In this document: positions 652 through 20,617 of the stretch, piece after piece
How positions within the stretch are numbered: the first letter of the stretch is position 1
Layout of the letters: each line of letters opens with the position of its first letter
Assembly (NCBI GenBank): GCA_965229505.1
Contig: OZ245881.1
Span: 4,050,675-4,114,674 of the forward strand
DNA: 64,000 bases
Direction: 5' to 3'
Source of the DNA: Cyclobacteriaceae bacterium
Lineage (GTDB): Bacteria; Bacteroidota; Bacteroidia; Cytophagales; Cyclobacteriaceae
Notes under the pieces: model-generated
What the model saw: only the letters and a program-made list of their open reading frames with translations
Told to the model about the DNA's origin: nothing
The model's database searches: none
Position numbers and translations under genes: made by a program

Positions 652-673
652 TCGATACTCACGAAAAACAGTC

Positions 674-787: not shown

Positions 788-1939
788 ATGAACAGACGAC
801 AAGCCATCTCCAAATCAGCCAAAGCCGCAGCACTACCCTTCTTTTTGCCTATGATCAATACAGGCTCATTCGAGCTGTTTGCAGGACAGGATAGACCCTA
901 CAAGAAACGGACGCTGGAAGTGATGGAGAGCAATACCATCATGGACATGCTCAGCCCACTTACCTTGAATGCTACGCAACTTTTCAACCTGATTATGAGG
1001 CCGGGCCAGTTTGAGGTGGGTGACCTTGGCAAATACAAAGAGGCAGGTATAGATGTCTATCATTTTGCGGTAGGCTTTGGTGGGCCTAATGCTTATCAGG
1101 ATCTGCTCAAGTACTTCGGTAGCCTCAACGGCTTCATTGCCAATAATGGTGAGCAGCTTATGCGCATCGATAGCATTTCTGATATCGACCGTGTCAAGTC
1201 CAGCGGCAAAACGGGTATTCTTCTGGGGGTTCAAAATGCCGAGCACTTTACTAAAGTGGAGGATGTAGACGACTTCTATGGGCTCGGTCAGCGCATCTCC
1301 CAACTTACTTATAACACCAGAAATAGAATAGGCAATGGTTGCACGGAGCGGGTTGATGGTGGTATCAGCGATTTTGGCTTTGATGTAATCAAACGGATGA
1401 ATGAAGTGGGTATGGCAGTGGATGTTAGTCACTGTGGCGACCGCACCACCATGGACGCTTTTGAGGCGAGTAGCAAGCCGGTGCTCGTCACGCACTCCAA
1501 TGCCCGGGCGCTCAACGATCACGTTCGCTGCAAGACAGATGAGGCGCTCAAGGCTATGGCTAAATCCGGAGGAGCTATCGGGATCACAGGTATGCGGAAT
1601 TTTGTGAAGGCCACCGATCCGACCACCATCGAAGATGTGCTCAATCACTTCGACTATGTAGCCAGGCTCATTGGCGTGGAGCACGTCGGCGTAGGTAGTG
1701 ACATAGACTTGTACGGGTATGATGCTTTACCTGCAGAAGAGCTGGCCAAGCTGCGTAGCAATCGCGATAATGAGAAATACAAGAGCCGCGAACGTTCAGA
1801 TATTGACCTGCTTAATCACCCCAAACGTATGTTTGATTTGACCGAGGGTTTGATCGGGCGTGGTTACTCTGACCAGGACCTTGCGGGTATACTTGGCGGC
1901 CATTTTAAGAGGGCCCTATCGGAAATCTGGAAGGCATGA
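788..1939 (+). CDS. Membrane dipeptidase (peptidase M19 family) with a Tat-like signal
   Basis: N-terminus MNRRQAISKSAKAAALPFFLP. M19-like motifs VDVSHCGDRTTMDAF, VLVTHSNARAL, HFDYVARLIGVEHVGVGSDID. Confidence 0.85.
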   Translation: MNRRQAISKSAKAAALPFFLPMINTGSFELFAGQDRPYKKRTLEVMESNTIMDMLSPLTLNATQLFNLIMRPGQFEVGDLGKYKEAGIDVYHFAVGFGGPNAYQDLLKYFGSLNGFIANNGEQLMRIDSISDIDRVKSSGKTGILLGVQNAEHFTKVEDVDDFYGLGQRISQLTYNTRNRIGNGCTERVDGGISDFGFDVIKRMNEVGMAVDVSHCGDRTTMDAFEASSKPVLVTHSNARALNDHVRCKTDEALKAMAKSGGAIGITGMRNFVKATDPTTIEDVLNHFDYVARLIGVEHVGVGSDIDLYGYDALPAEELAKLRSNRDNEKYKSRERSDIDLLNHPKRMFDLTEGLIGRGYSDQDLAGILGGHFKRALSEIWKA

Positions 1940-2088
1940 TCTCTAAAAATTTCAAACGTTTGCATAGATTTTAAGTGAATTATTAAAAATTCAACAATAA
2001 TACCTTGATTATGATAAATATCATGTAAATCTATCTTTTGGGTATTGAATTGGTGGAATATGAGCCCTACATTTGCCATATGTAGCAT

Positions 2089-2289
2089 TTGATTTTTTCA
2101 CCTATGTTGTTCCTCCACGACTCTCAGCAAATACAATTTTTTAAGTTCTATAAGCAACTCAAGCAAGAGGCGCCAAACAGAAAAAAAATCAAAGAACACA
2201 GAGAGGAATACTACAGAAAAGGGCAGGAGTATGGCTTCTGCAACGACGAGATTCACGAGATCATCAACGAATACCTAAGCGAGCACTAA
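2089..2289 (+). CDS. Small hypothetical protein. The more likely start is the ATG at 2104, giving 61 aa.
   Basis: ORF followed 28 nt later by a clean intrinsic terminator. No recognisable domain. Confidence 0.3.
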   Translation: MIFSPMLFLHDSQQIQFFKFYKQLKQEAPNRKKIKEHREEYYRKGQEYGFCNDEIHEIINEYLSEH

Positions 2290-2316
2290 ACTAAACTTCT
2301 ATTGATAGCGATTAAG

Positions 2317-2343
2317 TCCCGAAGTATCTTCGGGATTTCTTTT
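2317..2343 (+). terminator. Intrinsic terminator
   Basis: TCCCGAAG (2317-2324), loop TAT, CTTCGGGA (2328-2335), then TTTCTTTT. Confidence 0.7.
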
Positions 2344-2346
2344 GCC

Positions 2347-2402
2347 TATTAGTTAGACAAAAATGAAACTAATTAATTACATTCACGTTTGTCTAACTAA
2401 TA
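2347..2402. promoter_or_regulatory. 15-bp perfect inverted repeat upstream of PadR gene 1 (candidate operator)
   Basis: TATTAGTTAGACAAA (2347-2361) and TTTGTCTAACTAATA (2388-2402) with a 26-nt spacer. The -7-like box CACGTTTG (2384-2391) straddles the inner edge of the right arm. The PadR ATG is at 2458. Confidence 0.5.
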
Positions 2403-2457
2403 AAATATTAGGTAAATACGATTGGCCGTGGGCTTTTCGCTTTACCAGTTGTCAATC

Positions 2458-2793
2458 ATGAAAGGATCTTATCTGGGTGAATTTGAAGAGCTCGTACTAC
2501 TCACCGTGGGCTCGTTGTACAAAGAGGCTTACGGAGTTGCCATCATGGATGAAATAGAATCTCAAACCGAGAGAAGCGTCAATGTCAGCGCTGTGCACGC
2601 TGCTTTGAAGCGACTTGAAGCCAAGGGTTTTGTCAATTCTCATATGGGAGGCGCTACCAACGAAAGAGGAGGTCGCCGCAAGCGCTATTTCGAACTGACC
2701 CTTTCTGGTAAGAAGGTACTCGATGAATCTATGGCCTTGCGGACACAGCTCTATAGCAGGATACCCAATATATCATACAGTTTTAGTTATTGA
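2458..2793 (+). CDS. PadR family transcriptional regulator
   Basis: MKGSYLGEFEELVLLTVGSL..AYGVAIMDEIE...VSAVHAALKRLEAKGFV...GGRRKRYFELT is a typical PadR winged helix. The stop overlaps the next start (TGATG). Confidence 0.85.
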   Translation: MKGSYLGEFEELVLLTVGSLYKEAYGVAIMDEIESQTERSVNVSAVHAALKRLEAKGFVNSHMGGATNERGGRRKRYFELTLSGKKVLDESMALRTQLYSRIPNISYSFSY

Positions 2794-5387: not shown

Positions 5388-5416
5388 TTAATAGTGGGGG
5401 TAGTCATGGACTTTGG

Positions 5417-6643
5417 CTACCTCTGCTTGCTCAGTACCTTCACTACCTCGATCACCTTATCCACTTCATCTTCAGTATTATAGACGGAAATACCCAATCG
5501 CGTGACGCCACCTCTTTCCGCTAGGCCGAGACACTCTACGGCTCTCAGCGCGTAGAAATGTCCATCCCAGGCACAAATATTATGATTGGCTAGGTGCTCG
5601 CATACCTGAGTAGGATCATAGCCATCTAGCGTGAAGGATAGCGTAGGTGTCCTGGTCGTATCCGAAAAGTCTTGTCCGATGATTGTTAAGCCCTTGACAC
5701 TTTTCAAGCCGTTAAATAGCCTGCTCGCCAATGTAAACTCATGGGCGCTAACTTTCTGGTAAGCATCGGTAAGCTTAGCTCTTAAGTCATCGCCTTCCCC
5801 CAGGCTAGCCAGAAAATCTATAGCACCGATCACACCTGCCATCGCCGCATGGTTGAGCGTACCCGTCTCAATGGAGTAGGGGGCAAACTGATCTGCCGTA
5901 CGCAACCTGTCCGTAGGTAGCCGATCCAGTAATCCAGGTTTGCCGTACAGTACCCCAATATGAGGCCCGTAGAATTTATAGGCCGAGCATAGCAAAAAGT
6001 CACATCCAATAGCCTGCACATCAATTGAGAAGTGAGGAGCATAATGCACCGCATCAAGCAGCAACATAGCGCCCACTTGATGGCTCAGTGTTCTCACAAG
6101 TGTATAGTCATTGACTGTACCCAATGCATTAGACGACATACCCATGGCTACTAGTCTGGTGTTCTCATTCAACTTTTCTTTTAAGTCATCATAGTCAAGC
6201 ACTCCTCCTGGTAATAGTTTCACCTCACGCACGGTTATGCCATGATCCCTGAGTGTAAGCCACGGTCCGCGATTAGCCTCATGATCGAGCTGGGTAATAA
6301 GCACTTCATCACCAGGCTGAAATATCCGTGAAAAAGCACGAGCCAGTGCATAATTCAGAGTAGTCATGTTTTGACCAATCGAGATACAAGACTTGCTTTC
6401 GGCGTTGAGCATAGTAGCGAGGTGCGACCGCATCATATCCAGCTTTTGGTCAGTCTCTTTGGTGGTGGTGAATGCACCGTGCGCATTGGCATTGGACCGC
6501 TTGTAGTAGTTGCTGATGCCACGTATCACCCTATCGGGAACCTGTGTGCCTCCAGGGCCATCCATGAAAATCAACGGTTCGCCTTTGACTTTCCTTTTAA
6601 GTGCCGGAAACTGCTTTCGGATTTCTTCAATGTTGCTGAGCAT
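5417..6643 (-). CDS. Class V aminotransferase-fold PLP enzyme (cysteine desulfurase-like)
   Basis: 408 aa. Putative PLP-lysine context LLCSAYKFYGPH. LDAVHYAPH and the overall SufS/CsdA-like pattern. Confidence 0.8.
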   Translation of the reverse strand: MLSNIEEIRKQFPALKRKVKGEPLIFMDGPGGTQVPDRVIRGISNYYKRSNANAHGAFTTTKETDQKLDMMRSHLATMLNAESKSCISIGQNMTTLNYALARAFSRIFQPGDEVLITQLDHEANRGPWLTLRDHGITVREVKLLPGGVLDYDDLKEKLNENTRLVAMGMSSNALGTVNDYTLVRTLSHQVGAMLLLDAVHYAPHFSIDVQAIGCDFLLCSAYKFYGPHIGVLYGKPGLLDRLPTDRLRTADQFAPYSIETGTLNHAAMAGVIGAIDFLASLGEGDDLRAKLTDAYQKVSAHEFTLASRLFNGLKSVKGLTIIGQDFSDTTRTPTLSFTLDGYDPTQVCEHLANHNICAWDGHFYALRAVECLGLAERGGVTRLGISVYNTEDEVDKVIEVVKVLSKQR

Positions 6644-6958
6644 AGTTGTAATATTCTTTACTACAAGTTAGACGAATCATTTGTATCATTCCAACATGAA
6701 AAATTTATGTTGCTTTAAATTAACACCTGTCTTGACTACCAAGGCTTCTCAATAAAGTCGCTAACAATCCCTCTCATAGAGAGGCTTAGGGAGAGGTAAT
6801 TAAAAAAATAGACTTGATTGAGTTGCCTTGGTGGATATGTAAAATCAATTGACCCTTAATCTTGATCAGTCATTCAGTAAGAATGAACGAAAACATTGTT
6901 GTATAATCAATAAATCTTTATCTTGTAGTCATTATGACTATAAGATAACTCCTCCATT

Positions 6959-8449
6959 ATGCCCTATTTTCTTGGAATCGATTTGGGTAGCTCCTCTGTC
7001 AAGCTTTCGATACTGGACGGCAGTCTTGGGCGATCCGTTGCTCAGGTAACGTACCCGAATGAAGAGATGGTCATTTCAGCTGCTCAGCCTGGTTGGGCAG
7101 AGCAGGATCCCAATCTTTGGTGGGAGTGCATTGTACAGGGATGCAGGCAGCTGACACAAAAGGTTGACATGGCCAAGGTTGAAGCTATCGGTATTTCGTA
7201 TCAAATGCATGGACTGGTCGTGGTAGATGTTGAAGGAAAGCCGCTGCGTCAGGCGATCATTTGGTGTGACTCCAGGGCGGTGGAGATAGGCCAGAAAGCT
7301 TATCTGAAGCTAAACAAAGACTATCTTCATAATCAACTGCTCAATTCACCAGGAAATTTCACAGCTTCGAAGCTGGCATGGGTTAAGGCAAATGAGCCTG
7401 ACATCTTTGAAAAGGTAGATAAGCTGATGTTACCAGGCGACTTCATTGCCTATAAACTGACCGGCCAAATCCAAACCACCTCGGGAGGTCTAAGTGAAGG
7501 TACGCTCTGGGATTTCAAGGAAAACCGAATTTCAAAAGAACTCCTTCAATACTTTGGCCTGGAGGAGCGTATGATTCCTGAAGTTGTTCCTGCAATTGGT
7601 GTGCAATCCAGCGTTTCGAATGAGGCCGCTCAATTGCTTGGCCTTAGGGCTGGCACATCGATCTGCTACAGAGCAGGTGACCAGCCCAACAATGCCTTTT
7701 CATTGAATGTGCTCAACCCTGGAGAGATAGCTGCCACAGCGGGTACGTCTGCCGTGATCTACGCTGTGACGGACAAGCTCGCAGGCGATCATCAGCAACG
7801 GATCAATACATTTCAGCATGTAACCAATACCTCCGAGGCTATCCGCAATGGTCTTCTGCTGTGCATTAACGGTTCGGGTATTAGCTATAGTTGGATCAAG
7901 AAACTGCTCGGCGATCTCGACTATCCTGAGCTCAATGATATGGCTCACTTGGCACCTACAGGGGCGGATGGCCTGTTGTTTTACCCATTCGGGAATGGTG
8001 CAGAGCGACTCTTACAAAATCAAACTCTGGGAGCTCAGTTCGTAGGGCTCGACTTCAATAGACATGGCAAGGCGCACATGATCAGAGCACTGCAGGAAGG
8101 AGTGGTCTTTAGCATGAAGTACGGCCTGGAAGTTATTGAGCAGTTGGGTGGAGAGATAAAGACTATTCGTGCTGGCAAGGCCAACCTCTTTCTCAGTGAA
8201 GTATTTCGACAAGCATTTGTCAATACAACACAAATTCCTCTCGAACTCTATGATACTGATGGAGCGGAGGGAGCCGCTCGCGGTGCAGCATTAGGTGCAG
8301 GATTCTACAAAGATGCGGATGAGGCATTCGCAAGTCTAACTTTAATTGAGCGTATGGAACCCGATTCTGGTAAGGTAAAGGAGTATGAACCGTGCTATCA
8401 CAACTGGGTAAGCTATCTGGAGAAAACGATACTTAGTAATAAAATCTAA
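6959..8449 (+). CDS. xylB: Xylulokinase (FGGY carbohydrate kinase)
   Basis: N-terminus [18 protein letters not shown]; QMHGLVVVD; FGNGAERL. Lies immediately upstream of xylA. Confidence 0.85.
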
Positions 8450-8459
8450 AACCAAAACT

Positions 8460-9788
8460 ATGAAACCGATCATCGGAAATACAGAATACTTTAAAGGCAT
8501 AGGAAGTATAGTATATGAAGGCAAGGAATCAGACAACCCCTTCGCGTACAAGTACTACGATCCCACAAAACAGGTCTTGGGCAAGAGCATGCACGAGCAT
8601 TTCAAATTTGCGGTAGCGTACTGGCATACCTTCTGCAATACGGGTGGAGATCCATTCGGGCCCGGACCGATGGTGTTCCCATGGTCTGTTGCCTCTGATC
8701 CGGTGCAAGCAGCCTATGACAAGATGGATGCGGCTTTTGAGTTTATCTCCAAGCTTGGCTTGGGATACTTCTGCTTTCATGATTATGACTTGGTAGATGA
8801 AGCTGATTCACTAAAGAAGTCTGAGGATCGACTTCAAAAAATAGTCGAATATGGACAGCAGAAGAAAAAGGGATCTGATATCAAAGTGCTTTGGGGTACC
8901 GCGAACCTATTCTCTCATCCAAGATATATGAACGGAGCTGCGACCAATCCTGATTACCGGGTGGTGGCGCATGCCGGGGCGCAAGTAAAGAATGCTATAG
9001 ATGCAACGATAGCGTTGGGAGGTGAGAATTATGTTTTCTGGGGCGGCAGAGAGGGCTACATGTCGCTGATCAATACAGATATGAAACGCGAGCTAGATCA
9101 CATGGCACGATTTCTACACATGGCCAGGGACTATGCGCGATCCCAGGGCTTCCAAGGCACTTTCTTTATCGAGCCTAAGCCTATGGAGCCATCCAAGCAT
9201 CAGTACGATTTTGACTCAGCTACCGTAATAGGCTTCCTGCAAAAGTATGGGCTTGACGAAGACTTCAAATTGAACATAGAAGTGAACCATGCCACGCTGG
9301 CCAGCCATACCTTCCAGCATGAGCTGCAAGTTGCAGTCAATGACGGGATGCTGGGCAGTATTGATGCTAATCGGGGAGATTACCAGAATGGCTGGGATAC
9401 GGATCAGTTCCCCAATAATATCTACGAGATCGTCGAAGCACTCCTCGTCATCATCAGAGGAGGTGGCTTGCAAGGAGGAGGCGTCAACTTTGATGCGAAG
9501 ACCCGCCGCAATAGCACGGATCTGGCTGACATTTTTCATGCTCATATTGGGGCGATAGACCTTTTCGCAAGAGGATTGCTTATTGCTGAAGCCATTATTC
9601 AGGACGGCCAATACGATGGATTGATGCAATCGCGATATGCGAGCTTCGACAATGGAGAGGGAAACAACTTCGAGAATGCTAAGCTGACATTATCCGATCT
9701 TCATAGCCGTGCACATGAGCAGGGAGATATTCCGCAGCTATCTGGACAGCAAGAGCTATTTGAGAACCTGGTTAATAAGTTTATCTAA
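8460..9788 (+). CDS. xylA: Xylose isomerase
   Basis: 442 aa with hallmark motifs [49 protein letters not shown]. Confidence 0.95.
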
Positions 9789-10116
9789 AGGATTGTTTTT
9801 TACAAATGACCAATATTAAAACCAGATATAGTGTGGATAATTAGGTGAATAACCTGTTGATCGTTTGTGTAAAAGTAGGATAGCCAAAATATTGTATTTG
9901 TAAAGTTCTGATATACTTTAGTAACACCAAGAGAGAGATAAAGAGCTGAAGCGAAAGTTTCGGATCGAGGAGGGGAAGCAGCATCAAATTACGGTTTGTT
10001 ACTGCGAAGCTTCGAAATCTTGAAGGCGGAAAGGCTGGCAACAGTTGGGAAGTCTACAGGCTTTGAACAGTATCTTGGCAGTGGGCTGGAAGCTACGGCA
10101 GCCAGCGGACTGGAGA

Positions 10117-10160
10117 GGGTAAGTTGATTCGCAAGAGGAAGCTTACCCTTTTTGTTTTTG
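10117..10160 (+). terminator. Plus-strand intrinsic terminator embedded in the 3' end of the convergent gene
   Basis: GGGTAAG (10117-10123) / CTTACCC (10142-10148), then TTTTTGTTTTTG. It sits about 330 nt after the xylA stop, and no hairpin lies directly after xylA. Confidence 0.55.
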
Positions 10161-11138
10161 GTTTGTCAATGAGACTCTCATTCCCATCCATCTTCTGACT
10201 CTTGTCTTTATAATGTGCAGACACTCCCCCAAATGAATACAACAGGCCCAAAGTGATTGATATTTTTGATACAAGTCCATTTTAGATAACGATCCTTTTT
10301 CAATTAGCTTTTTTGTTCTCTCAAGTTCTTGATGTAGACGCCAGTAGTGTGTTATTATCTCGACCTTCCGAAGGTGATAAACTTTTCTGTATCTGGTTAA
10401 GTCTGCTTTAAAATACTTAGATGCGTATTCTTTATTCCCCTCTGCAAAATACATTGCCATACTTTTTCCGTAGGACTTTAGTCCAGGTATTAGATATTTC
10501 AAACTAGGGTTGTTAAAATGAGAAACCATTACCTTGTCGGCAAAACCCATTTTGTAACCCTTGAAATGCAGGTGCGCTCCTAATGCTGGTTCCGCAAAAT
10601 GTTCGAACTGACTCAAGAAACCATTTTCTTTTAGGAAGACTGACCTAAGGATTCCAAAGCCGCGAACGGTGATTTTGTTCCACGAGTCTTCTTTAGATCT
10701 TCTTTCAAAGTCCTCATCAAAAATCCTCTGTTCCATTTCAGCCAGGACAGTTTTGTTGATTCCATCACTTTTGCAACAGGCTAGCGCAACGTCGTGTGTA
10801 GCAAAGTAATTGCATAGTTCAGTCAGACAATCATGGTATGGTATACAATGAGACTCTGTTATGAAAACCAATTCTGAGGAGGCATTCCTTACTCCGACAT
10901 TTGCTAGTTCGAGAAGATTGGCTTTTGGTTCAACTATGAACTTATCGATAGGCCTCAGCGAATCAATAATTTTCTTATCCAATGTCGTGTTTTTTCCATC
11001 GGAGATAAAAATGATCTCAAAAGACCTTTGATCAAATTGGACATGATTTACCCAACGATCCGCTACTTCAGGAGCTATACCTCTGTGGTCTGGTAAGGGG
11101 ATTATAACTGTGACCTTCGTTTGCTTGGTGCCTGACAT
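10143..11138 (-). CDS. Glycosyltransferase family 2-like protein (low-GC orphan gene)
   Basis: N-terminal VTVIIPLPDHRG...EIIFISDG...ANVGVRNASSELVFITESHC resembles a GT-A fold start. The C-terminal half is unrecognised. The gene is markedly AT-rich relative to its neighbours. Confidence 0.5.
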   Translation of the reverse strand: MSGTKQTKVTVIIPLPDHRGIAPEVADRWVNHVQFDQRSFEIIFISDGKNTTLDKKIIDSLRPIDKFIVEPKANLLELANVGVRNASSELVFITESHCIPYHDCLTELCNYFATHDVALACCKSDGINKTVLAEMEQRIFDEDFERRSKEDSWNKITVRGFGILRSVFLKENGFLSQFEHFAEPALGAHLHFKGYKMGFADKVMVSHFNNPSLKYLIPGLKSYGKSMAMYFAEGNKEYASKYFKADLTRYRKVYHLRKVEIITHYWRLHQELERTKKLIEKGSLSKMDLYQKYQSLWACCIHLGECLHIIKTRVRRWMGMRVSLTNQKQKG

Positions 11139-11188
11139 GATTCAAAGGAATCAATCTTTGTTGAAATTCCTTACAACTTTAAGAATTC

Positions 11189-11686
11189 TCAATCAATATG
11201 TACTACACTACCTACTAAGTCTTCGTAGAAGTGATGCATTCGATACATCTCTTCAGCGCCCAGTTTCTGTCCGGCTTGAGCCACAAAATACATTATGATG
11301 GCGATGACGCCACACACTGGAATGGTCCACAAAATTGGTGCTTCCTGATCGAGCATCAATTGTGAAGTGCCTGCCATCAAGCCAAACAGGGCCAAAATAC
11401 CAAGAGCGACATAGCCAAAAAAGAATATCGCCCAGACGGTAGGGTTGGGGCCATACAGCCCCCTGATGATGGTACCTTCTGTGCTTTCTTCGAACGAAAG
11501 GCTCAACTGTGGAGACCAAAAATGCTGATCTACAATAGGAATGGTTAGCGTGATATGATCCTGGACTGAGGTAGCGGTAAAACGATCAACACCTGTTTCC
11601 AGACGTGCTAACAGTCTCGACTGTAAGTCTCTGCTTGGCTCTTCCGTCAGTTGCTTAAATCTCGGCCTGATTCTCAAACTACTCAT
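11189..11686 (-). CDS. Hypothetical membrane protein
   Basis: 165 aa. Soluble N-terminal half (HFWSPQLSLSFEE), then two predicted TM helices. Confidence 0.55.
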   Translation of the reverse strand: MSSLRIRPRFKQLTEEPSRDLQSRLLARLETGVDRFTATSVQDHITLTIPIVDQHFWSPQLSLSFEESTEGTIIRGLYGPNPTVWAIFFFGYVALGILALFGLMAGTSQLMLDQEAPILWTIPVCGVIAIIMYFVAQAGQKLGAEEMYRMHHFYEDLVGSVVHID

Positions 11687-11786
11687 GCGACGAATATGCC
11701 AATTTTGTTTCTGAATTATACTGACGGTTGTCAGTTAGATGCTTAGAATCCAAAGTTTTAGTACATTCATTGTCAAACATTCGACT

Positions 11787-12704
11787 ATGAAAAAATACCT
11801 TATCCTTCTATTGACCGGCCTCTCCTTTCTTTCTACCCGGGCACAGACCAACGAGCTATGGCTATCGTCGAAAGTAAAGAACTACTTGCCTCATATGACG
11901 GTACCGGAGGTGGAAGACCTTCTCACTCGTACCGATATGGTGATTATTCCGGTAGGCGCTATAGAACAACATGGCTATCACTTACCGCTGGGAACTGATT
12001 TTTTGAATGGTGTAGAGCGATGTAAGCTACTGGCTCAGGAAAGAGATGTGCTGGTAGCGCCTATTTTGATGGCAGGTCAGAGCCCTTATCACATGGGGTT
12101 TGCCGGTACGATTACCCTTTCTGCAGAGACCATCATGAAGGTGCATCTGGAAGCGGTCGAAAGTCTGATCAGGCATGGGTTTAAGCGGTTCATGATCCTC
12201 AACTCTCATGGAGGTAACCGCGCCATTTCTACCCTCCTTGTTGATCAGATCAATCAGACTACCGCAGGCATAGCTGTGGATATGGGCGAGGCGATCAGAC
12301 CTTTTAGTATGCCTGTTGAAGTGGAACTCACTGATGTATTTGATCGCCATGGAGGAGTCTGGGAGACCTCCAGTTCTCAATACCTGATCCCGAGCCTCGT
12401 ACAGATGGACAAGGCAGTGACTGCCGAGTTGACTTTACCACCACATATGGCCCAGATGCTGCCAGAGGTAGTTGATGGTGACCGCACGGCCTTGCTGGTT
12501 TTTTTGGCAGAGGGTCTCAAAGCGGAGGAAACTGGTAAGGGCACCTCCTCCAAAGAAATGTCTACCACGGGAGTTTGGGGTGTTCGAGACTTGAAAGAAG
12601 CCTCTGAAAAGCTTGGTGGGCTGCAAACTGACAATTTCGTACAGGCAAGTGTGCAATTCATAGATAGGTGGAATGAGTTGCGGCCTTTTGGCACGGATAA
12701 ATAG
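11787..12704 (+). CDS. Creatininase family amidohydrolase with an N-terminal signal peptide
   Basis: MKKYLILLLTGLSFLSTRAQ signal. The motif IIPVGAIEQHGYHLPLGTD is diagnostic of the creatininase family. Confidence 0.8.
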   Translation: MKKYLILLLTGLSFLSTRAQTNELWLSSKVKNYLPHMTVPEVEDLLTRTDMVIIPVGAIEQHGYHLPLGTDFLNGVERCKLLAQERDVLVAPILMAGQSPYHMGFAGTITLSAETIMKVHLEAVESLIRHGFKRFMILNSHGGNRAISTLLVDQINQTTAGIAVDMGEAIRPFSMPVEVELTDVFDRHGGVWETSSSQYLIPSLVQMDKAVTAELTLPPHMAQMLPEVVDGDRTALLVFLAEGLKAEETGKGTSSKEMSTTGVWGVRDLKEASEKLGGLQTDNFVQASVQFIDRWNELRPFGTDK

Positions 12705-12781
12705 CTTGTGTGAAGCCAGTATTCGTATACCAATCTCATTAACATTTTTCATATCTTCCTACCGGAATCATTTTATCAAGT

Positions 12782-14476
12782 ATGGCCTACCGAATATCTA
12801 AAATCACCTCCCGACTTGTCAGGCTCTATGACGCCAAAGGCAAGGAAAATGTGCTCACCCCTCCAGAGTACAAGCCTTTTCTCCAGCGACCGATGGAGTT
12901 TTTGATCCTGATTACCCTTCTAGCTGCTATTCCTACCGGAATCATGCTCGGGTGGATGTGGACATTATGGTGCCTTTTGGGGGCATTGTTTTTATTCTCC
13001 ATCAACGATTTTTTTATTCAGGATGATCATACCCTTATCAGAATTTATGGCCCGCTCGGTCGGTTTAGATACGTATTTGAAAATGTATTTAGAGATAAAT
13101 ACCTTCAGTACTTCAACGAAACCAATACTGATGGACGACCAATTCCTAAGATAGTCAGAGACTATGTTTATCAGAAAGCGAAAGGCATCAAAGCATTAAG
13201 CAGCTTTGGGACTGAGCTGGATATCTATGATACCGAGAATACAGCCTACAGTCGTATACTTCATACCAACTTCAGCTCACACAGTGAGACTACTTCTTAC
13301 GGGTTTGAGGTGGGTGCACATCGCAAGAATGTGAAACCCTTTCTGGTAAAAAACAGCATCAATATCTCTGCCATGAGTTACGGTGCACTCAACTACAAGG
13401 CGGCAGAGAGCTTAAGCCTGGGAGCAAAGGGTGTCGCCTATGTCAACACTGGTGAAGGTGGCTGTGGGCCCCACGCCATCGCAGGTAATGATACCGTGCT
13501 CCAGCTAGGTACAGGCAAGTTTGGTGCGGGCAAGGATGTGGTACTGCCAAATGGCCAACATTCGCGAGCGCTGGATGAAGATCTGCTCAAAGAAACTATC
13601 AGGGATCACCCCAACATTGGGATGGTTCAATTGAAGATATCACAAGGCGCGAAACCGGGCATTGGAGGCCACCTCCCGGGCCCTAAGGTAACGCCCGAAA
13701 TAGCCGCAGTGCGTAAGGTAGAGCCCTGGAAGACATTGGTCAGCCCTCCTCAGCATGTGGAGCTCATGGCCACTACTTCTAAGGAAGGGGTGCAAAAGCT
13801 GATGGACTTCTGCAAGCATATCAGATCACTGACCGGTTTGCCGGTAGGCATCAAGCTATGCGTCGGCAAGCTGTCTGAGATCGACTTACTCGTGGAAGCG
13901 ATGAAGTCAACTGGCGAGGGGCCTGACATGATCCAGATCGATGGTGCAGATGGCGGTACTGGCGCGGGACCCAACATGTTCGTCAACTATGTGGGCTATG
14001 GTGGTGCAGTGGAGACTTTGGCGTATCTGCATCGCCGATTGGTAGGAGCGGGTATTCGCGATCAGGTACATCTCAGTGCGTCAGGGAGAATTCTCACGCC
14101 TGCGCATGCGGCCTATGCTTTCGCCTATGGTGCAGATACCATCGAGACAGCCAGAGCGGCGATGCTGGCAATTGGTTGTATTCAGGCATTGAAGTGCCAT
14201 ACCAATCACTGCCCTACCGGAATCACCACCAACAGCAAGTGGCGCATGCACGGAATAAACATCCCTGAGAAGTCAACACGCATCCACAAGTACCTGACCG
14301 GCTTTCATCATGACATGCTGGAGCTAACGCAAATCCTGGGACACAGCGATCCCAGAGATATCAAGCCTGAAGACCTCCGGGTCATGACCAACAAAAAGTT
14401 CTTTAGCAGTCAATTTGAAGATGACCCATTCGGTATGATGATGCCGGCTCCTGACTCGGATCATTGGAAGAGTTGA
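12782..14476 (+). CDS. FMN-binding glutamate synthase family protein (GltB FMN-domain-like) with an N-terminal TM segment
   Basis: ISAMSYGALN, GEGG, QLKISQGAKPGIGGHLPG, IQIDGADGGTGAGP motifs. Confidence 0.85.
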   Translation: MAYRISKITSRLVRLYDAKGKENVLTPPEYKPFLQRPMEFLILITLLAAIPTGIMLGWMWTLWCLLGALFLFSINDFFIQDDHTLIRIYGPLGRFRYVFENVFRDKYLQYFNETNTDGRPIPKIVRDYVYQKAKGIKALSSFGTELDIYDTENTAYSRILHTNFSSHSETTSYGFEVGAHRKNVKPFLVKNSINISAMSYGALNYKAAESLSLGAKGVAYVNTGEGGCGPHAIAGNDTVLQLGTGKFGAGKDVVLPNGQHSRALDEDLLKETIRDHPNIGMVQLKISQGAKPGIGGHLPGPKVTPEIAAVRKVEPWKTLVSPPQHVELMATTSKEGVQKLMDFCKHIRSLTGLPVGIKLCVGKLSEIDLLVEAMKSTGEGPDMIQIDGADGGTGAGPNMFVNYVGYGGAVETLAYLHRRLVGAGIRDQVHLSASGRILTPAHAAYAFAYGADTIETARAAMLAIGCIQALKCHTNHCPTGITTNSKWRMHGINIPEKSTRIHKYLTGFHHDMLELTQILGHSDPRDIKPEDLRVMTNKKFFSSQFEDDPFGMMMPAPDSDHWKS

Positions 14477-14491
14477 CGAATCAACTACGTC

Positions 14492-14947
14492 TTAATCACC
14501 CATGCCTGTAGGTTGGGTTTGGATTTCATCGTACCAATAGACAGGAAAGCTGTAATGATTCATTGCTAATGTCTCAACCTCTTCACGCAATCCTGGTTTC
14601 TTGGGAGGGCTTGGATATAGCATCGCCAAACCAATTGATTCAAGTTGATCTGACTTCATGTATTCATCAATATACTTGTGAAGCTGACGGCCATGTCTCC
14701 ACAAGTTCTTTCGAATATTCTGAGGCTTGATTTTGTCCCAGTCTGTAGCCTTAATCTCCATAATCATAATAAAGTCATCAGGGTAGGTAACAAGAATATC
14801 CATTCGACCTGACTTAGTCTTTGCGTAGGATAATGCTTCGAATCTTACATGAGCTTCCTTTTTTGGCTGACCATCAGAATGTTCCAGATAGTCTTGTTGG
14901 ACGATCCTCTGAAAGATTTTACCTCGTTTGAGTTGATCAGGTTCCAA
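14492..14947 (-). CDS. Small hypothetical protein with a PD-(D/E)XK nuclease-like motif (TTG start)
   Basis: GKIFQRIV...GRMDILVTYPDDFIMIMEIKATDW gives D (14798-14800) ... E-I-K (14750-14758). The only in-frame start after the upstream stop is TTG at 14947, 13 nt after the upstream gene's stop. Confidence 0.5.
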   Translation of the reverse strand: MEPDQLKRGKIFQRIVQQDYLEHSDGQPKKEAHVRFEALSYAKTKSGRMDILVTYPDDFIMIMEIKATDWDKIKPQNIRKNLWRHGRQLHKYIDEYMKSDQLESIGLAMLYPSPPKKPGLREEVETLAMNHYSFPVYWYDEIQTQPTGMGD

Positions 14948-14960
14948 AGCTAACTAAGTA

Positions 14961-16136
14961 CTAATCTTCTTTCCATTCAAAAGAGGATTTGGCCCACTCC
15001 AGGATGCTTTCTTCTTGATATTCTAAGTTGGCCTCATCATACCTCTGTCTCATTTTTTTTATGAAATATTCATAAGGATCCGGCCTTATTCCTTTTGTTA
15101 AATTCCAGGGAATGTTTTTTATCATCTTATAATCTATGAAATAACTGAGGGGAAGTTTATCACTGTCTTTCTCCTTCTCTTTCTTCTTTTCCTTATCACT
15201 GATACTATTGTCTTGCCACCATATCCATCCAGCCTTGAAAAAGGAGTTGTAATAAATCATAGCTTGTTCGTGATTAGAGAGTTGTGCTCTGATCATTTTT
15301 ACATAATCGTATTTCTGCTCGTAAGACAGTAAACTTGAGGTAACAATAAACTTCATCGTCTGGTATAGATGCCTATAATAATGACCAAGTTTAGAGGCAT
15401 GTCCATCAAATGGATAATAATGACACTCAAGTTTGACTTTCTTCATTGATCTATGACCTATCTCATAGTATGGTCTTGGTTCCTTAATGCTTGATTCATA
15501 ATGAGTAAAAAGTTTGGAATACTTATGCTGGTTTCTTTTTAGAATTCTGAGACATCTAAATAAAAAAGGAGTATGAACCCGATGATGATAAATAATACTG
15601 CCCTCAATCATATCTCCAACTCCGAAGAATAAGATGGAATATGCCAGATCAGTAATCTCTTCATCGCTTGCATTTACTTCTGGTTGATTAATGAAACCGG
15701 CTCTAGCAAGCCTATTCCACCATCGTCGTTCAAACATTATTGTTAAATAAATAAATCGAAATTCTTGGTACATTCTTACTATAGCCTTTCGACCAGACGT
15801 GACTCCTCCGATATCTATTTCTGAAACATTCTCCTTGTGGAGTCTAAGCATCTCATAGAACTTATTCTCAAATCGCTCTAACTGAATATCCTCGCGCTGC
15901 TGTTGATTTGCTTTGTATTGAACCCAAAAGGCTATGAACGTAAGTCCTGAGGCAACAATAGCTACAAATGGGCCTAATATTCCGCCCAGAGTACTACCAA
16001 TTAGTCTACTGTTGTCACTGAAGCTGAAACTAACCCATTTCCATTGAGTGATGGCGTAGGGTAGGAAAAGTATAATTACTATTAGGATTATGAATAGAAT
16101 AAGGAATAATCTGAATCTTCTATCCCACGTTTTCAC
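14961..16136 (-). CDS. Two-TM membrane protein resembling the 'putative phage abortive infection protein' (putAbiC-like) family
   Basis: N-terminal TM helices (FRLFLILFIILIVIILFL; GGILGPFVAIVASGLTFIAFWV), then ERFENKFYEMLRLHKENV, YPFDGHASKLGHYYRHLYQTMKFI and IRAQLSNHEQAMIYYN, which I recall as signatures of that family. The GTG start overlaps the upstream stop (GTGA). Confidence 0.6.
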   Translation of the reverse strand: MKTWDRRFRLFLILFIILIVIILFLPYAITQWKWVSFSFSDNSRLIGSTLGGILGPFVAIVASGLTFIAFWVQYKANQQQREDIQLERFENKFYEMLRLHKENVSEIDIGGVTSGRKAIVRMYQEFRFIYLTIMFERRWWNRLARAGFINQPEVNASDEEITDLAYSILFFGVGDMIEGSIIYHHRVHTPFLFRCLRILKRNQHKYSKLFTHYESSIKEPRPYYEIGHRSMKKVKLECHYYPFDGHASKLGHYYRHLYQTMKFIVTSSLLSYEQKYDYVKMIRAQLSNHEQAMIYYNSFFKAGWIWWQDNSISDKEKKKEKEKDSDKLPLSYFIDYKMIKNIPWNLTKGIRPDPYEYFIKKMRQRYDEANLEYQEESILEWAKSSFEWKED

Positions 16137-19100
16137 CCAACACCCCCTTCCACTATCTTAATCTCCTCCTCTGTCAATCCATAGAGATCATAGACTAACC
16201 TGTCGATTTCTTTGACTAAGGTTTCTCGTTTGTTTTGAGAATCGACTAGCGTCATATTTATCAAACTCTCAACCTTTTCATCGAGCAGTTCTTTTTGTTT
16301 GCTCGAGGCTATGGGTATCGGTATCTGTTCAATATATGAGATTTTGAGCCTTGCAAACCCACCTCTTACAAAGTCGCATATGCTGCTTAAGAAAAGTTTT
16401 GATACACTTGAATTAAGGACTCCATAGATCATTTTGCTAGATGTAACAATCATCTGATTATTGTCATTGCCGTAGTACCCACTTTGATCAAAAGCGAAAG
16501 ATGTGATATCCCTACTAATTCCTGGCCACAGTATCTTCTCCTTCTCAAACTCATCATAATAATCGCAAGCCCTTAGTTCCCACCAGTACTGACCTTGATC
16601 GTAGCGTGCCTTTGCTTTAGTTTCAAATCGCAGCAGGTGCTTCATGATGGCAGGATATTTATTCTTCATCTTACCCAAAGCTTCCTTTTCTTTCAAGTCA
16701 CCAAACCAAGTTTTTGTGTCTCCATTTTTGATCAGGATAAGATGATGATCACTGCTTGGCTGCTGATATCGTTTAATATCTCTACCTGCCAGGAAGGGTT
16801 TGATCACTTCGGCGCTGGCAGGATCTTGTTTAATTAACTTTTTCCGAGTGGCAGTATCAATTACAAAAGCTTCGTTGAGGCCTGTTTTGATACCGTAGAA
16901 TATTTTTCCTTCCACATATTTCCCTAACGGCTCACCTGCCGACCTCAGCTTGGCTAGTAGTTTTTGGACTTTGCTATCGGTGAGTGTCCAGCCTTCATCA
17001 CCTAACTCCTTCGTCAGTACATCTAGACTATTGGCCTGGATATGCTCGTCCATGTTTTTATCAAAATCGAGCGAGGTGAAGTTGACTGCTCTAAACTCGG
17101 GTGTAGGCGTGGATTTGGTTAACTCCATAATAAGCGGGTAGGTAGTTGCCTCTTCAAATACTGGCAAATCTCCAAAATCAAGGAGTTGATGGATTTTGTG
17201 AGATTTCACAAATGAGCGGAGCTTTTTACCATAGCCTGCTCTCATCCATTTGTTAGGAATGATGAAGGTGAATGCGCCTTGATCACGAAGTAGCTTCATG
17301 CCTAGTTCTACAAAATAGACATAAAGGTCAGCAGTGCCTGAGTATGTGGTGTAATTCACTGACAAGTGAGACTTGATGTCAGTGAGTTCCTCCTGTCTGA
17401 TATAAGGTGGATTACCAATTATCATATCAAAACCTGTAAAATTACCTGCATCATCAAGTACCTCTGGAAACTCAAACCTCCATTCAAAAGCATTTTCATA
17501 AAGTTTGTTGGCCTTTATGTCTTCTAGCTCACTCGTCAACTTCTCGATTTGGGCTTCCAGTTTCTCTACTTCCTTTCTCCGCTTTTGACTGGCTTTGTCT
17601 TTACCATAGTTCTGCTTGGGCTCGAATAGCATCATCCTGAACCCATCGCTTCCGCGTCCTGTAAGCTCATACAACTTTGCGCCAAGCTTAGCGATTTTCA
17701 CCTTTCTTGGATCCGAGTAGTTTCCAATCTCAGTTTGAAAACTTGACTTGATGTCATTTATCAGCTTTTCAATTTGCCGTTTTTCATCCTTTGACTCAGC
17801 GTGATGATAATTGTGAATGGCTAATTTATAAGTTGTGATATTCCATTTCCCCTTACTTTTCTTTAGCACCTGCTTTAGATCTACATCTAACTCAAATCGA
17901 CTGATCAATGAATTACCCGTCTTGATATTGATATCGATATTGGGGAGGGTCTCTAGCTCTGTAGCATTTTTGTAGTAGGCGTTTTTGAGTAGTTCAATCC
18001 AGAGTCTAAGTCTGCATATTTTCACAGAGTTGGTATTGATATCCACGCCGAAGAGACAATTCTCGATGATGGTCTGCTTTTCATGAAACAGCGCCTCTTG
18101 TACGCGCTGCTTTTCTTTATTGCCTACTACATAATCGAATAGTTCCCCTTCAGCTTCTACAATTAGTTCATCGTTCTCGATAGAGACCTCATAGTCACGG
18201 AGTGTTTTGCCATTGCGATCTAAGAGTATCTTTAGTTCAGATTTTATGGCAATGAGTTCATTGAGTGCTGATACCAAGAAGTGACCAGAGCCCACAGCTG
18301 GGTCACAGATCTTCAGGCTGTTGATGATCTCGTTGGCACCTTGCTTATCATCCCGGTCTATACGGTCGTGGAGTTGATCAAAACTATCCAGCGACCATCC
18401 TTTGGCCTCATTAAACTTCTGCACCACTGCCCTACGTATTGTCTCGCGGCACATATACATGGTGATAAAGCCTGGGGTGTAGAAGGAGCCGTCTTTGTAC
18501 CCATTGATCTTCTCGAAGATCAACCCGAGTACCGAGGCATTGATCAATGACTTGTTCTCTTCTTGGATAGCCTCCTTGCCCTCGCTACTAAAGTCGTATG
18601 CCGCCAGAAATTCGAAAAGATAGGTGAGCGTGTCTTTCTGGCCTGTCAGTTTTTTGCCTTTTTCACTTTTGAGTACCGTATGAGGGTAAAGGTCGAGCTT
18701 CAGGTCATTATTGAGCTGTGTGATCTCAAGTATCTCCTCGAGACCTGTAGGCTCAAAGAGCGAGCTATTCAAATAGGGTACATGCGCATACTTCTCTTTA
18801 TACCGGTCATTTCGCTCTTCGGACTTCCTTGCCAACACCCCAAAGAAAAGACTGGCTAACGTATCAAAGTTGGGTACAGTGGTGATGTCTAAAAACCGAT
18901 ATTGCTTATCTCCTTTATGGTATGCCACCAATTGGGACTCCAATAGTTTTAGAAACAGAATCCTGTTGATCCAAGTAATGCAGAGCTCCAGACCGACATT
19001 GTATAGCTGATCGCCTGTAGAATGTCCAAAATGGGAAGGTTGATCCAGCATCCTTATTCTATCCCGCTCGTCCATGACCATGATGGCATTTTCGAGAAGT

Positions 19101-19936
19101 GACCCCTCATTCCGTTTTCCTTTCTCCTTGCGTCCAATTACTTTCTTGCCTTTCTCCTTAATCTCTTCTAATCCAATGATATGCAGTAGCTCATGGTAAA
19201 ACTGCTTGTTGAGGCTATTGCTATCATTGGCAAAGGGCAGCTTAAGCAGATGTACCGGAGAGAGTAGTTTGTATAGAGAGATGAGGTTACTGCCATCAGA
19301 TTCGTTAACTAGCTCTTTCTTATACTCACGAAGGTCAAACCATGTATAGGTTAGTTGATCTTTGACCTGATCAATAAAAGGTGCAGCAATGTCTTTGTAA
19401 AAGAGGTCGGTGCTGGAGCCGTCTTTCTGACCGGAAGTCCACTCCCGATAGGCCTTTTCCAGTTTTTTATTGCTGTAGAAATGACGGTAAAACTCTGAGG
19501 CATCAAAGATGAACCACTCATAGACATTAGTAACTATTAGGTGGCGGATGTCTTTATTCTCATCCTCTATGCGCTCTCTCAGGTAGTAAAGCAACAACTC
19601 TTGAAGTGCCTTAGCATTAAGCTGCTTTCGCGAAATCATTTCTGACTTATTGCTTGGCTTCTTGACTTCCAACAGTACTGCTGCTGGACTTTTTGGACTA
19701 TTGTCTTGCCGAATGACCAGATCTGTATTTCCTTTAGTGTTGATCCGATGCTGATCCTTATACCACGTTTCGTTAAGAAAACTAATCATGTCATTCTTGA
19801 CATGTTCTTCACTCTCAGATTCATCAAGTTCTTGGAGTAGCTTGTGAAGCTGATTGCGAAATATCTCTATGGATGTCTTAAGGACTTTTTGCCTTCGATA
19901 CGCCTTATTGAGGGATTTGGCCAGGCTTTTCTTCAT
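16133..19936 (-). CDS. Type IIG restriction-modification enzyme: N-terminal PD-(D/E)XK nuclease, gamma-class N6-adenine methyltransferase (Eco57I-like) and TaqI-like C-terminal specificity domain in one 1267-aa chain
   Basis: TDLVIRQDNSPKSPAAVLLEVKKP (D 19721-19723, EVK 19661-19669). Motif I ICDPAVGSGHFLV (18278-18304). FEWRFEFPEV...FDMIIGNPPY (NPPY 17402-17413). YGIKTGLNEAFVID (16856-16897). Confidence 0.85.
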   Translation of the reverse strand: MKKSLAKSLNKAYRRQKVLKTSIEIFRNQLHKLLQELDESESEEHVKNDMISFLNETWYKDQHRINTKGNTDLVIRQDNSPKSPAAVLLEVKKPSNKSEMISRKQLNAKALQELLLYYLRERIEDENKDIRHLIVTNVYEWFIFDASEFYRHFYSNKKLEKAYREWTSGQKDGSSTDLFYKDIAAPFIDQVKDQLTYTWFDLREYKKELVNESDGSNLISLYKLLSPVHLLKLPFANDSNSLNKQFYHELLHIIGLEEIKEKGKKVIGRKEKGKRNEGSLLENAIMVMDERDRIRMLDQPSHFGHSTGDQLYNVGLELCITWINRILFLKLLESQLVAYHKGDKQYRFLDITTVPNFDTLASLFFGVLARKSEERNDRYKEKYAHVPYLNSSLFEPTGLEEILEITQLNNDLKLDLYPHTVLKSEKGKKLTGQKDTLTYLFEFLAAYDFSSEGKEAIQEENKSLINASVLGLIFEKINGYKDGSFYTPGFITMYMCRETIRRAVVQKFNEAKGWSLDSFDQLHDRIDRDDKQGANEIINSLKICDPAVGSGHFLVSALNELIAIKSELKILLDRNGKTLRDYEVSIENDELIVEAEGELFDYVVGNKEKQRVQEALFHEKQTIIENCLFGVDINTNSVKICRLRLWIELLKNAYYKNATELETLPNIDINIKTGNSLISRFELDVDLKQVLKKSKGKWNITTYKLAIHNYHHAESKDEKRQIEKLINDIKSSFQTEIGNYSDPRKVKIAKLGAKLYELTGRGSDGFRMMLFEPKQNYGKDKASQKRRKEVEKLEAQIEKLTSELEDIKANKLYENAFEWRFEFPEVLDDAGNFTGFDMIIGNPPYIRQEELTDIKSHLSVNYTTYSGTADLYVYFVELGMKLLRDQGAFTFIIPNKWMRAGYGKKLRSFVKSHKIHQLLDFGDLPVFEEATTYPLIMELTKSTPTPEFRAVNFTSLDFDKNMDEHIQANSLDVLTKELGDEGWTLTDSKVQKLLAKLRSAGEPLGKYVEGKIFYGIKTGLNEAFVIDTATRKKLIKQDPASAEVIKPFLAGRDIKRYQQPSSDHHLILIKNGDTKTWFGDLKEKEALGKMKNKYPAIMKHLLRFETKAKARYDQGQYWWELRACDYYDEFEKEKILWPGISRDITSFAFDQSGYYGNDNNQMIVTSSKMIYGVLNSSVSKLFLSSICDFVRGGFARLKISYIEQIPIPIASSKQKELLDEKVESLINMTLVDSQNKRETLVKEIDRLVYDLYGLTEEEIKIVEGGVG

Positions 19937-19980
19937 TGGTGGTTATGCGTATCTTTTAGAGTAGTTAATATAGCATAGAT

Positions 19981-20011
19981 CAAAATCAATGACGAGTTTC
20001 TTGATAACAAG
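19981..20011 (-). promoter_or_regulatory. Candidate Bacteroidetes-type promoter for the R-M/Abi operon
   Basis: On the minus strand: CTTG (20011-20008), 19 nt, TGATTTTG (19988-19981). The consensus is TTTG-N19-21-TAnnTTTG. It lies about 45 nt upstream of the ATG at 19936. The match is imperfect. Confidence 0.3.
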
Positions 20012-20147
20012 TGAACTGAAAAAACTGCTGATTCAGATGAAGAGCGCATTAGAGGAATGGTTTTCAAAGTTTAGTTTTTCTGCTGAGTATCAATGAATAG
20101 AAGGGGTCTAGGGCTGTTATTTATCAGGAGGTAGTTACAGTTCAAAG

Positions 20148-20231
20148 TTTTCATAGGCATAAAATGAAAATTTCATGCCTATGAAAATAATATTTCATGC
20201 CTACAATTTTTTGAAGAGATAGGCATGAAAT
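20148..20231. repeat. Two tandem hairpins built from four copies of the ATGCCTA/TAGGCAT core
   Basis: IR1 is TTTTCATAGGCAT (20148-20160) / ATGCCTATGAAAA (20175-20187). IR2 is ATTTCATGCCTA (20192-20203) / TAGGCATGAAAT (20220-20231). The array sits directly 3' of the HU-like gene stop (20234) and upstream of the R-M operon. Confidence 0.6.
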
Positions 20232-20233
20232 GA

Positions 20234-20617
20234 TTAACTCTTTTGATAGCTGGCCGATTTTCGCATTGCCTGGAGCTTTTTGCCAGGTGTGAAGATGACT
20301 TTATTACCCTTGATCGACGAGGCATTGACCTCTTCTGGAGTATCAACACCATTACTGCCCACAGACATCCTGAGACTTCCCAGATCACCCAATCGGACGA
20401 TTTGACTGTTGGCTAGTTGGTCAGTGGCCACATCGACCATCGCATAGAGCACTGCCCTGATATCTGCACCACTGACGGTGCTGATCTTTTCGATGCTCTT
20501 AGTGAGATCATCGATATTGACTTCACCGGTCATTACTGCGGTTGCGTAGAATTTTTTCTCCCCGCCACCCGCTACACCTGGTTGGCCTCTTTCAATTACT
20601 TTGTACTTAATAGGCAT
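20234..20617 (-). CDS. Bacteroidetes-type HU-related DNA-binding protein
   Basis: 127 aa: MPIKYKVIERGQPGVAGGGEKKFYATAV..GEVNIDDLTKSIEKISTVSGADIRAVLYAMVDV...VRLGDLGSLRMSV, typical of the HU_rel/HU-HIG family. Confidence 0.8.
   Translation of the reverse strand: MPIKYKVIERGQPGVAGGGEKKFYATAVMTGEVNIDDLTKSIEKISTVSGADIRAVLYAMVDVATDQLANSQIVRLGDLGSLRMSVGSNGVDTPEEVNASSIKGNKVIFTPGKKLQAMRKSASYQKS

Follow-up and report, generated by a model that had tools for sequence, protein, structure and literature searches.

A type IIG restriction-modification gene followed by a variable cargo segment with an AbiC/AbiP-group gene and a small nuclease gene: a probable defence islet in a Cyclobacteriaceae chromosome

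We analysed a 64,000-nucleotide (nt) stretch of DNA from a Cyclobacteriaceae bacterium (assembly GCA_965229505.1, contig OZ245881.1, positions 4,050,675 to 4,114,674), hereafter called the window, for the nature of a candidate anti-phage locus within it. An open reading frame (ORF) map of the window places three adjoining, co-directional ORFs on the minus strand at 14492-19936: gene 1 (16133-19936, 1267 amino acids, aa), gene 2 (14961-16136, 391 aa, GTG start), and gene 3 (14492-14947, 151 aa, TTG start). Read from the sequence, the start codon of gene 2 lies on top of the stop codon of gene 1 in the tetranucleotide GTGA (16133-16136, minus strand), and a spacer of 13 nt (14948-14960, minus strand) separates gene 2 from gene 3; a terminator-like site was sought in this spacer and none was seen. 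Simple scans also gave no more promoter or terminator matches between the three genes than in shuffled sequence. An earlier note on this DNA had described the same packing, overlap, and gap, all of which are present, and had taken them to point to one transcript and one composite anti-phage system. The overlap and the short gap do suggest a single transcript, and co-transcription of all three genes is plausible from this packing.

Gene 1 contained DUF7149, DUF7814, Eco57I/MmeI_Mtase, and TaqI_C on one chain based on Pfam, and matched the PADLOC model REase_MTase_IIG PDLC03612 over residues 7-1265 of 1267 (977 bits, 5e-294). The domains follow one another on the minus strand as an N-terminal nuclease domain, DUF7149 (aa 4-238, 19223-19927; PF23653, 1.9e-92), with the PD-(D/E)XK motif D72...E90-V-K92; DUF7814 (aa 239-465, 18542-19222; PF25120, 1.9e-93), a helical connector; a gamma-class N6-adenine methyltransferase region (aa 536-947, 17096-18331; Eco57I PF07669, 3.8e-43, with MmeI_Mtase and N6_Mtase also matched); and a TaqI_C target-recognition domain (aa 1046-1207, 16316-16801; PF12950, 1.7e-14). 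Residues D72, E90, and K92, motif I DPAVGSGHF (545), and motif IV NPPY (842) were all invariant among 24 homologues. Gene 1 is, as predicted from its domains and motifs, an intact single-chain type IIG restriction-modification-specificity enzyme, and the earlier assignment to this class from nuclease, methyltransferase, and TaqI-like domains is borne out. Type IIG enzymes work alone, restricting unmodified DNA and methylating that of the host. The gene 1 family is very large (>8000 matches); its nearest sequences in the PDB are the methylases M.BseCI and M.TaqI, and no solved structure was closer than these two methylase cores. A search of a literature library found no paper naming DUF7149. 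Additionally, some relatives of gene 1 (P0179, P0258, and P0287) carry a Vsr-like DUF559 (PF04480) insert of 170-230 aa, which is a second nuclease-type domain. At about gene 1 residue 511, the insert separates DUF7814 from the methyltransferase region, and its reading as a C-terminal nuclease fusion or a fused downstream gene was rejected in favour of an internal insertion.

Gene 2 matched the putAbiC family (PF16872) with 60.8 bits (cut-off 22; 1.8e-16), the core covering aa 246-303 (15228-15401, minus strand), and among PADLOC models it matched AbiP (2e-8) and AbiC (1.3e-4). Two N-terminal transmembrane helices, at aa 3-35 and 44-73 by hydropathy, precede a helical soluble domain; the AlphaFold2 (AF2) model, with a predicted local distance difference test (pLDDT) score of 87, is all-helical, with N-terminal helices at 6-31 and 45-106. 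From sequence and family matches, gene 2 is assigned to the AbiC/AbiP group of membrane proteins, as the earlier note had proposed with its AbiC-like membrane protein. We found 557 homologues, and the N-termini of relatives (MKTFD...) back the GTG start. A fold search of the PDB with the AF2 model gave no match (best E = 2). A HEPN reading, raised by the resemblance of R283-x5-H289 to Rx4-6H, is not claimed, given a confident model with no PDB fold match. No paper naming putAbiC was found in the same library. According to a 2026 review, AbiC and AbiP are grouped as AbiC/P and are single-gene systems, with an N-terminal anchor of two helices in AbiC and one in AbiP, a soluble helical domain after it, and predicted folds that lack an informative structural match; AbiP is membrane-anchored, prefers RNA over single-stranded DNA as a binding partner, and has a major tail protein as its trigger (PMC13064643).

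The AF2 model of gene 3 (pLDDT 93) has an alpha-beta-beta-beta-alpha-beta core, with helices at 4-23 and 75-99 and strands at 27-35, 46-55, 59-65, and 104-111. Residues G47, R48, D50, E64, and K66 were invariant in 53 homologues, and D50, E64, and K66, the predicted catalytic residues on strands 2 and 3 of the fold, are encoded at 14750-14800 on the minus strand. The top Foldseek matches in the PDB were all PD-(D/E)XK proteins (R2 endonuclease, Card1/Can2, N.BspD6I, McrC, and Cas4), with template-modelling (TM) scores of only ~0.5 and identities of 9-19%. The protein lies outside the Pfam family PDDEXK_9 (PF08011), since its 17.8 bits are under the gathering threshold of 25.5, and the PD-(D/E)XK assignment is kept in spite of this because fold and conserved motif agree. 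No match was found in PADLOC, NCBIfam, or PHROGs, and at the sequence level its PDB relatives were only chance matches to dehydrogenases. Gene 3 is accordingly described here, on sequence and model, as a predicted stand-alone minimal PD-(D/E)XK nuclease of an undescribed family, which upholds the small PD-(D/E)XK protein of the earlier note. Its relatives start with MEPxQLKRGK, backing the TTG start at 14947, which adds a conserved first helix. The public record seems to give gene 3 a length of 103 aa, starting at Met49 (P0001), and this deposited form is probably truncated because the homologue N-termini support the TTG start.

The closest relative of gene 1, P0177 (74% identity), lies on L031, a contig of a Cyclobacteriaceae metagenome-assembled genome that is syntenic with the window, with PIG-L, NUDIX, and glycine-transporter genes on one side and Glu_synthase, creatininase, and a 165-aa gene on the other. 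A blastn comparison of L031 with the window showed homology that runs through gene 1 as far as its stop codon (16133) and sets in again at that of Glu_synthase (14476). The segment in between (14477-16132, no strand assigned), consisting of genes 2 and 3, had no DNA homology to L031, in which the space from one of these conserved stop codons to the other is taken up by a 1.5-kb cassette of HipA_C and Couple_hipA. In L032, a second copy of the L031 contig, the stop codon of gene 1 and the HipA gene as called there have a 4-nt overlap, and ORF maps give L031 the same one. Because the L031 homology spans gene 1 and a HipA cassette replaces genes 2 and 3, gene 1 is regarded as vertically inherited and genes 2 and 3 as replaceable cargo. 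Within gene 1, identity to P0177 is 86-95% over aa 1-700 and 31-58% over aa 1001-1267 (16133-16935 in the window), a pattern that usually marks altered specificity and that suggests that the TaqI_C domain was swapped or has diverged, with a change of DNA specificity. A second segment of low identity to P0177, likewise within 31-58%, covers aa 701-800 (window ~17540-17835), and the remainder of gene 1 is at 86-95%.

The cargo genes 2 and 3 have the lowest guanine-plus-cytosine (GC) content of the neighbourhood, 0.374 against a window mean of 0.447 (standard deviation 0.029 in 1.6-kb windows), and 9 of 312 windows of 1.6 kb go down to this level. Gene 1 (0.423) differs little from the window mean, and the flanks are at 0.47-0.48. 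The AT-rich block that the earlier note had drawn around all three genes is hence real for genes 2 and 3 and not for gene 1. A second low-GC stretch at 35.2-37 kb (35200-37200) was considered as another island and rejected, as it is a sulfate permease gene; for this reason low GC by itself says little about foreign origin in this genome.

Six-frame hidden Markov model (HMM) searches for relatives of genes 2 and 3 were run over all 133 loci collected in this study. Neither family was found in any of the 83 loci fetched through gene-1 relatives; gene 2 was absent from the distinct gene-3 loci (0/29), and gene 3 from the gene-2 loci (0/16, comprising six close relatives and ten distant relatives on viral contigs). 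Relatives of genes 2 and 3 were found only in loci that had been fetched through them. With relatives at 25-31% identity still within reach of the gene-2 HMM, the sensitivity of the searches was adequate. The sole locus with both gene-1 and gene-3 relatives is L004, in which the gene-1 relative, DUF4062, a Schlafen/AlbA-HTH protein, McrB, McrC, and the closest gene-3 relative (67% identity) follow in this order, with four other defence genes between the two. Two small proteins next to gene-2 relatives were tried as gene-3 relatives and rejected, neither having a Pfam match: a 149-aa protein after the putAbiC gene of L115, for which the gene-3 HMM found nothing and a direct --max search gave 0 bits, and a 143-aa protein in L128, a locus in which the gene-3 HMM found nothing. 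The exact gene 1-2-3 trio was otherwise found only in near-identical genomes, and it appears to be a one-off combination. The earlier note had set beforehand a neighbourhood check of its composite system, to be decided against it by homologues of the three genes not co-occurring elsewhere. That is the pattern found, and together with the HipA cassette at the orthologous locus it speaks against one composite system.

A weaker form of the composite idea, a regulatory or layered-defence link of gene-2-like proteins to restriction-modification (R-M) in general, survives because close gene-2 relatives directly follow R-M genes in three of six other contexts. In Ekhidna lutea (L115), the close gene-2 relative comes after an Eco57I-type methylase gene with a 4-nt overlap, and in L116 and L129 close relatives stand directly after type I R-M operons. 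Another follows a Schlafen-type helicase gene (L128) and another lies among unknowns (L127). The gene-2 relative of L114 is solitary, as are most of those in the ten viral-contig loci. Small nuclease-type genes were found 3' of gene-2 relatives, namely HNH in L127 and L128 and PLD in L116. The L115 locus (314-14159) is itself a long co-directional island that encodes a PLD-SNF2 helicase, an Eco57I/MmeI-type methylase, the putAbiC protein, the products of two small ORFs, McrB, McrC, and a kinase-FHA protein. Translational coupling between an AbiC/P gene and a methylase gene is thereby seen a second time.

The gene-3 family is rare and comprises ~400 cluster representatives, nearly all of them 130-170 aa and stand-alone, and had no match in IMG/VR contigs or PLSDB plasmids. 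Domain fusions, examined as a clue to partners, were rare, and the sole informative one joins an Mrr nuclease domain. A scan of species-representative genomes gave 25 gene-3 loci, and further loci came from contig look-ups. The hosts span at least ten phyla, including Bacteroidota, Alphaproteobacteria, Acidobacteriota, Chloroflexota, Planctomycetota, KSB1, Bacillota, and other phyla, with one Thermoplasmatota archaeon. Gene-3 relatives typically end co-directional arrays, and several stand alone. The genes before them include SIR2 with HerA, McrB with McrC, HerA-like ATPases, an SMC-like ATPase, DUF3644, and integrative-element cargo, and the contexts of the family also include Shedu and, at the present locus, AbiC/P. 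Among 251 neighbouring ORFs, one neighbour family was clearly recurrent across unrelated loci, a HerA-like ATPase in four of them (L001 3303-5476, L012 7782-10438, L020 7612-10438, and L028 5685-10502), directly upstream of the gene-3 relative in three and nearby in the fourth. This hints at a pairing of a HerA-like ATPase with the small nuclease, akin to known HerA-nuclease defence pairs. In L132 (754-8614) and L133, a gene-3 relative is the final cargo gene of an integrative element, beside an insertion sequence (IS) element; the integrative element carries an excisionase-like HTH_17 protein, a DUF5906 primase-helicase, and an RNase_T-BRCT protein.

The 3' side of gene-1 relatives was surveyed by a metagenome scan with the gene-1 alignment, which returned 80 loci, 62 of them usable. 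The next gene was co-directional within 15 nt in 18/62, co-directional at 16-150 nt in 16/62, co-directional and farther in 12/62, and convergent in 16/62. Once the loci L004 and L031-L033 were added, there were 37 proteins encoded close by in the same direction, and they fell into 34 BLAST clusters. Those with annotation were mostly of defence type: Mrr, SMEK, GmrSD (twice), TIR, FRG, a trypsin-like protease, NTase_sub_bind, a STAND NTPase, AAA_13/AAA_21, and SIR2. The slot is also filled by the HipA cassette in L031 and by DUF4062 and then McrBC in L004. Several tightly coupled 3' neighbours had no Pfam match (L064 6775-7854, L070 4504-5055, L074 5843-7159, L084 11729-12301, and L033 11831-12370), and they are candidates for undescribed defence genes.

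Taken together, the locus is probably a small chromosomal defence islet, in which a type IIG anchor is followed by a variable 3' cargo slot that holds two autonomous modules, rather than a three-part machine. The gene identities, the intact motifs, the replacement of the cassette, and the missing co-occurrence are direct observations, and for co-transcription, for what genes 2 and 3 do, and for what triggers them we infer the following. Gene 1 would be inherited vertically at the locus, with the slot beginning directly at its stop codon and filled in related genomes by quite other defence or toxin genes, and would be self-sufficient: by family membership, TaqI_C would read a short asymmetric site, the gamma-class methyltransferase would mark host adenines, and the N-terminal PD-(D/E)XK domain would cut unmodified incoming DNA. 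Genes 2 and 3 would be horizontally acquired and act independently. By analogy with lactococcal AbiC and AbiP, gene 2 probably acts alone, triggered by a phage structural protein, and its abortive infection would block late phage development once restriction is evaded. Gene 3, terminal in many unrelated defence operons, most likely cuts phage DNA alone, perhaps DNA that is modified or of a particular structure; it is held to be autonomous because it has no recognition or sensor domain and many different partners or none. It may alternatively be a generic effector recruited by sensors of the nucleoside triphosphatase (NTPase) type. All three genes would be expressed from the gene 1 promoter, giving layered defence by co-expression and not by physical or signalling coupling. 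A more far-reaching proposal, to be taken as tentative, is that gene 3 represents a new autonomous restriction-type defence gene, or a plug-in nuclease effector shared by different sensors and terminal in unrelated defence operons, and that type IIG genes of the DUF7149 type may have, at their stop codon, a true cargo-exchange site for defence genes. Several observations weigh against two autonomous modules behind an anchor. The translational coupling at GTGA is unusually intimate for unrelated modules, gene-2 relatives stand right after R-M genes in three more genomes (L115, L116, and L129), and the closest gene-3 relative (67%) belongs to the L004 island that begins with a gene-1 relative. 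Sampling was also limited, with six close gene-2 contexts and with metagenome contigs that were often short.

The intimacy of genes 1 and 2 could be read as a PrrC-like arrangement, in which the type IIG enzyme holds gene 2, gene 3, or both inactive and they fire, as a back-up by abortive infection, when a phage inhibits or evades restriction. This was also an idea of the earlier note, which saw a possible second-line effector triggered by failed restriction. There is precedent in PrrC, which lies inside the EcoprrI locus and is set off by Stp, an anti-restriction peptide of T4 (PMC12707154), and the stop-start overlap and the close gene-2 relatives directly after R-M genes in L115, L116, and L129 fit such a lock. 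However, relatives of genes 2 and 3 are missing from every one of the 83 gene-1-type loci and the orthologous gene 1 has a HipA cassette instead; AbiC and AbiP are single-gene systems, with a major tail protein as the reported trigger of AbiP (PMC13064643); and gene-2 relatives also occur alone, in L114 and on viral contigs. The R-M genes found beside gene-2 relatives come from systems of unrelated types, which makes a specific lock between proteins unlikely. The reading keeps some weight through the three R-M contexts, and we consider it improbable overall.

Two further readings give gene 3 a fixed partner, and both are judged still less probable than the lock, to about the same very low degree. 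Genes 2 and 3 might form a sensor and effector pair of membrane protein and nuclease that landed as one cassette, in line with their 13-nt spacing, their shared low GC, their joint absence from L031, and the small nuclease-type genes, HNH (L127 and L128) and PLD (L116), that other gene-2 relatives precede. Against such a pair, the two families never met in 16 gene-2 and 29 gene-3 loci, gene 3 is unrelated to the small proteins that come behind gene-2 relatives in L115 and L128, and nucleases are common throughout defence islands. Gene 3 might instead be an accessory nuclease of the type IIG enzyme, such as a second-strand cutter or a repair-type, Vsr-like nickase, as Vsr stands beside Dcm. L004 does combine the two, with a gene-1 relative and the closest relative of gene 3 in a single co-directional array, and the Vsr-like DUF559 insert of some gene-1 relatives would suit an added nuclease, but the L004 pair is four genes apart, no other gene-1 locus among the 83 has gene 3, the only recurrent gene-3 neighbour is the HerA-like ATPase, and type IIG enzymes are known to work alone.

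The surroundings of the islet are chromosomal. In a PADLOC and Pfam census of the other 42 sizeable ORFs in the window, the flanks were housekeeping genes and no other true defence system was found, the only PADLOC matches being generic ones (OmpA/MotB-like proteins and a cysteine desulfurase resembling SspA/DndA). There was no integrase among the Pfam families of the window ORFs, and neither a tRNA gene nor flanking direct repeats that might mark mobile-element boundaries were found around the block. The earlier note's description of a chromosomal setting with no integrase thus stands. On the 5' side, the region 19937-20233 (minus strand) is AT-rich, with a GC content of 0.33, and presumably holds the promoter for the three-gene unit; promoter-like matches within it are at consensus level only and not above the level of shuffled sequence. 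It also holds the terminator hairpins of the next gene (20234-20617, minus strand), which encodes an HU-HIG DNA-binding protein (PF18291, 6e-35) and lies between the glycine-transporter gene and gene 1. Two strong hairpins were seen 3' of the HU-HIG gene at 20148-20235, with the motif TAGGCATGAAA common to both. The HU-HIG gene was considered as a conserved partner of gene 1 and rejected, since it adjoins gene-1 relatives in two of ~75 other loci only (L033 and L057) and is missing from the syntenic L031.

The 3' flank of the widespread DUF7149-type type IIG family is a rich and easily located place in which new defence genes may be sought, and gene 3 defines a small nuclease family, so far uncharacterised, with strong ties to defence contexts. 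Should AbiC/P-like proteins indeed favour the position behind R-M genes, this would bear on the co-regulation of layered immunity. The locus also advises caution, in that stop/start overlap and shared orientation of neighbouring defence genes do not prove one system.

Type IIG enzymes have been known before, as have AbiC/P proteins and defence islands whose cargo varies. Like type IIG enzymes of the MmeI, Eco57I, and BpuSI type, gene 1 has a nuclease, a gamma-class methyltransferase, and a C-terminal TaqI_C domain in one chain, and it differs from them in belonging to the DUF7149/DUF7814 subgroup. Gene 2 shares with lactococcal AbiC the two N-terminal transmembrane helices and the helical soluble domain, and with AbiC/P in general a predicted fold with no informative structural match (PMC13064643); unlike the plasmid-borne lactococcal AbiC and AbiP, it is on a Bacteroidota chromosome, is distant in sequence, and is coupled to an R-M gene. 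Gene 3 has the core fold and D...ExK motif of the Card1/Can2, McrC, N.BspD6I, R2, and XisH nucleases, whereas it contains no sensor or DNA-recognition domain. In contrast to BREX and DISARM, no PglZ, BrxC/BrxL, or DrmA/B/C was found in the PADLOC census of the 42 other ORFs, and gene 1 was far under the NCBIfam cut-offs for PglX (96.9 vs 500), so that the earlier statement that BREX, DISARM, and type I/III partners are missing from the window is confirmed. In its architecture, the locus resembles PrrC in EcoprrI and BrxU/GmrSD in a BREX island, where a conserved anchor is accompanied by changing, unrelated defence genes in the same orientation and with tight spacing. Adjacency of the PrrC type is seen here in the overlap of gene 2 with the gene 1 stop codon, and BrxU is independent of its BREX neighbours (PMC12707154), as proposed here for genes 2 and 3. 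Unlike PrrC and RloC, genes 2 and 3 have no ABC-type ATPase or anticodon nuclease domains, and their pairing with R-M is not conserved. The islet further differs from the PrrC and BrxU islands in that one type IIG gene is the whole anchor, the slot is marked neither by an integrase or tRNA gene nor by repeats, and it starts exactly at the stop codon of the anchor, often through an overlap of that codon with the next start codon.

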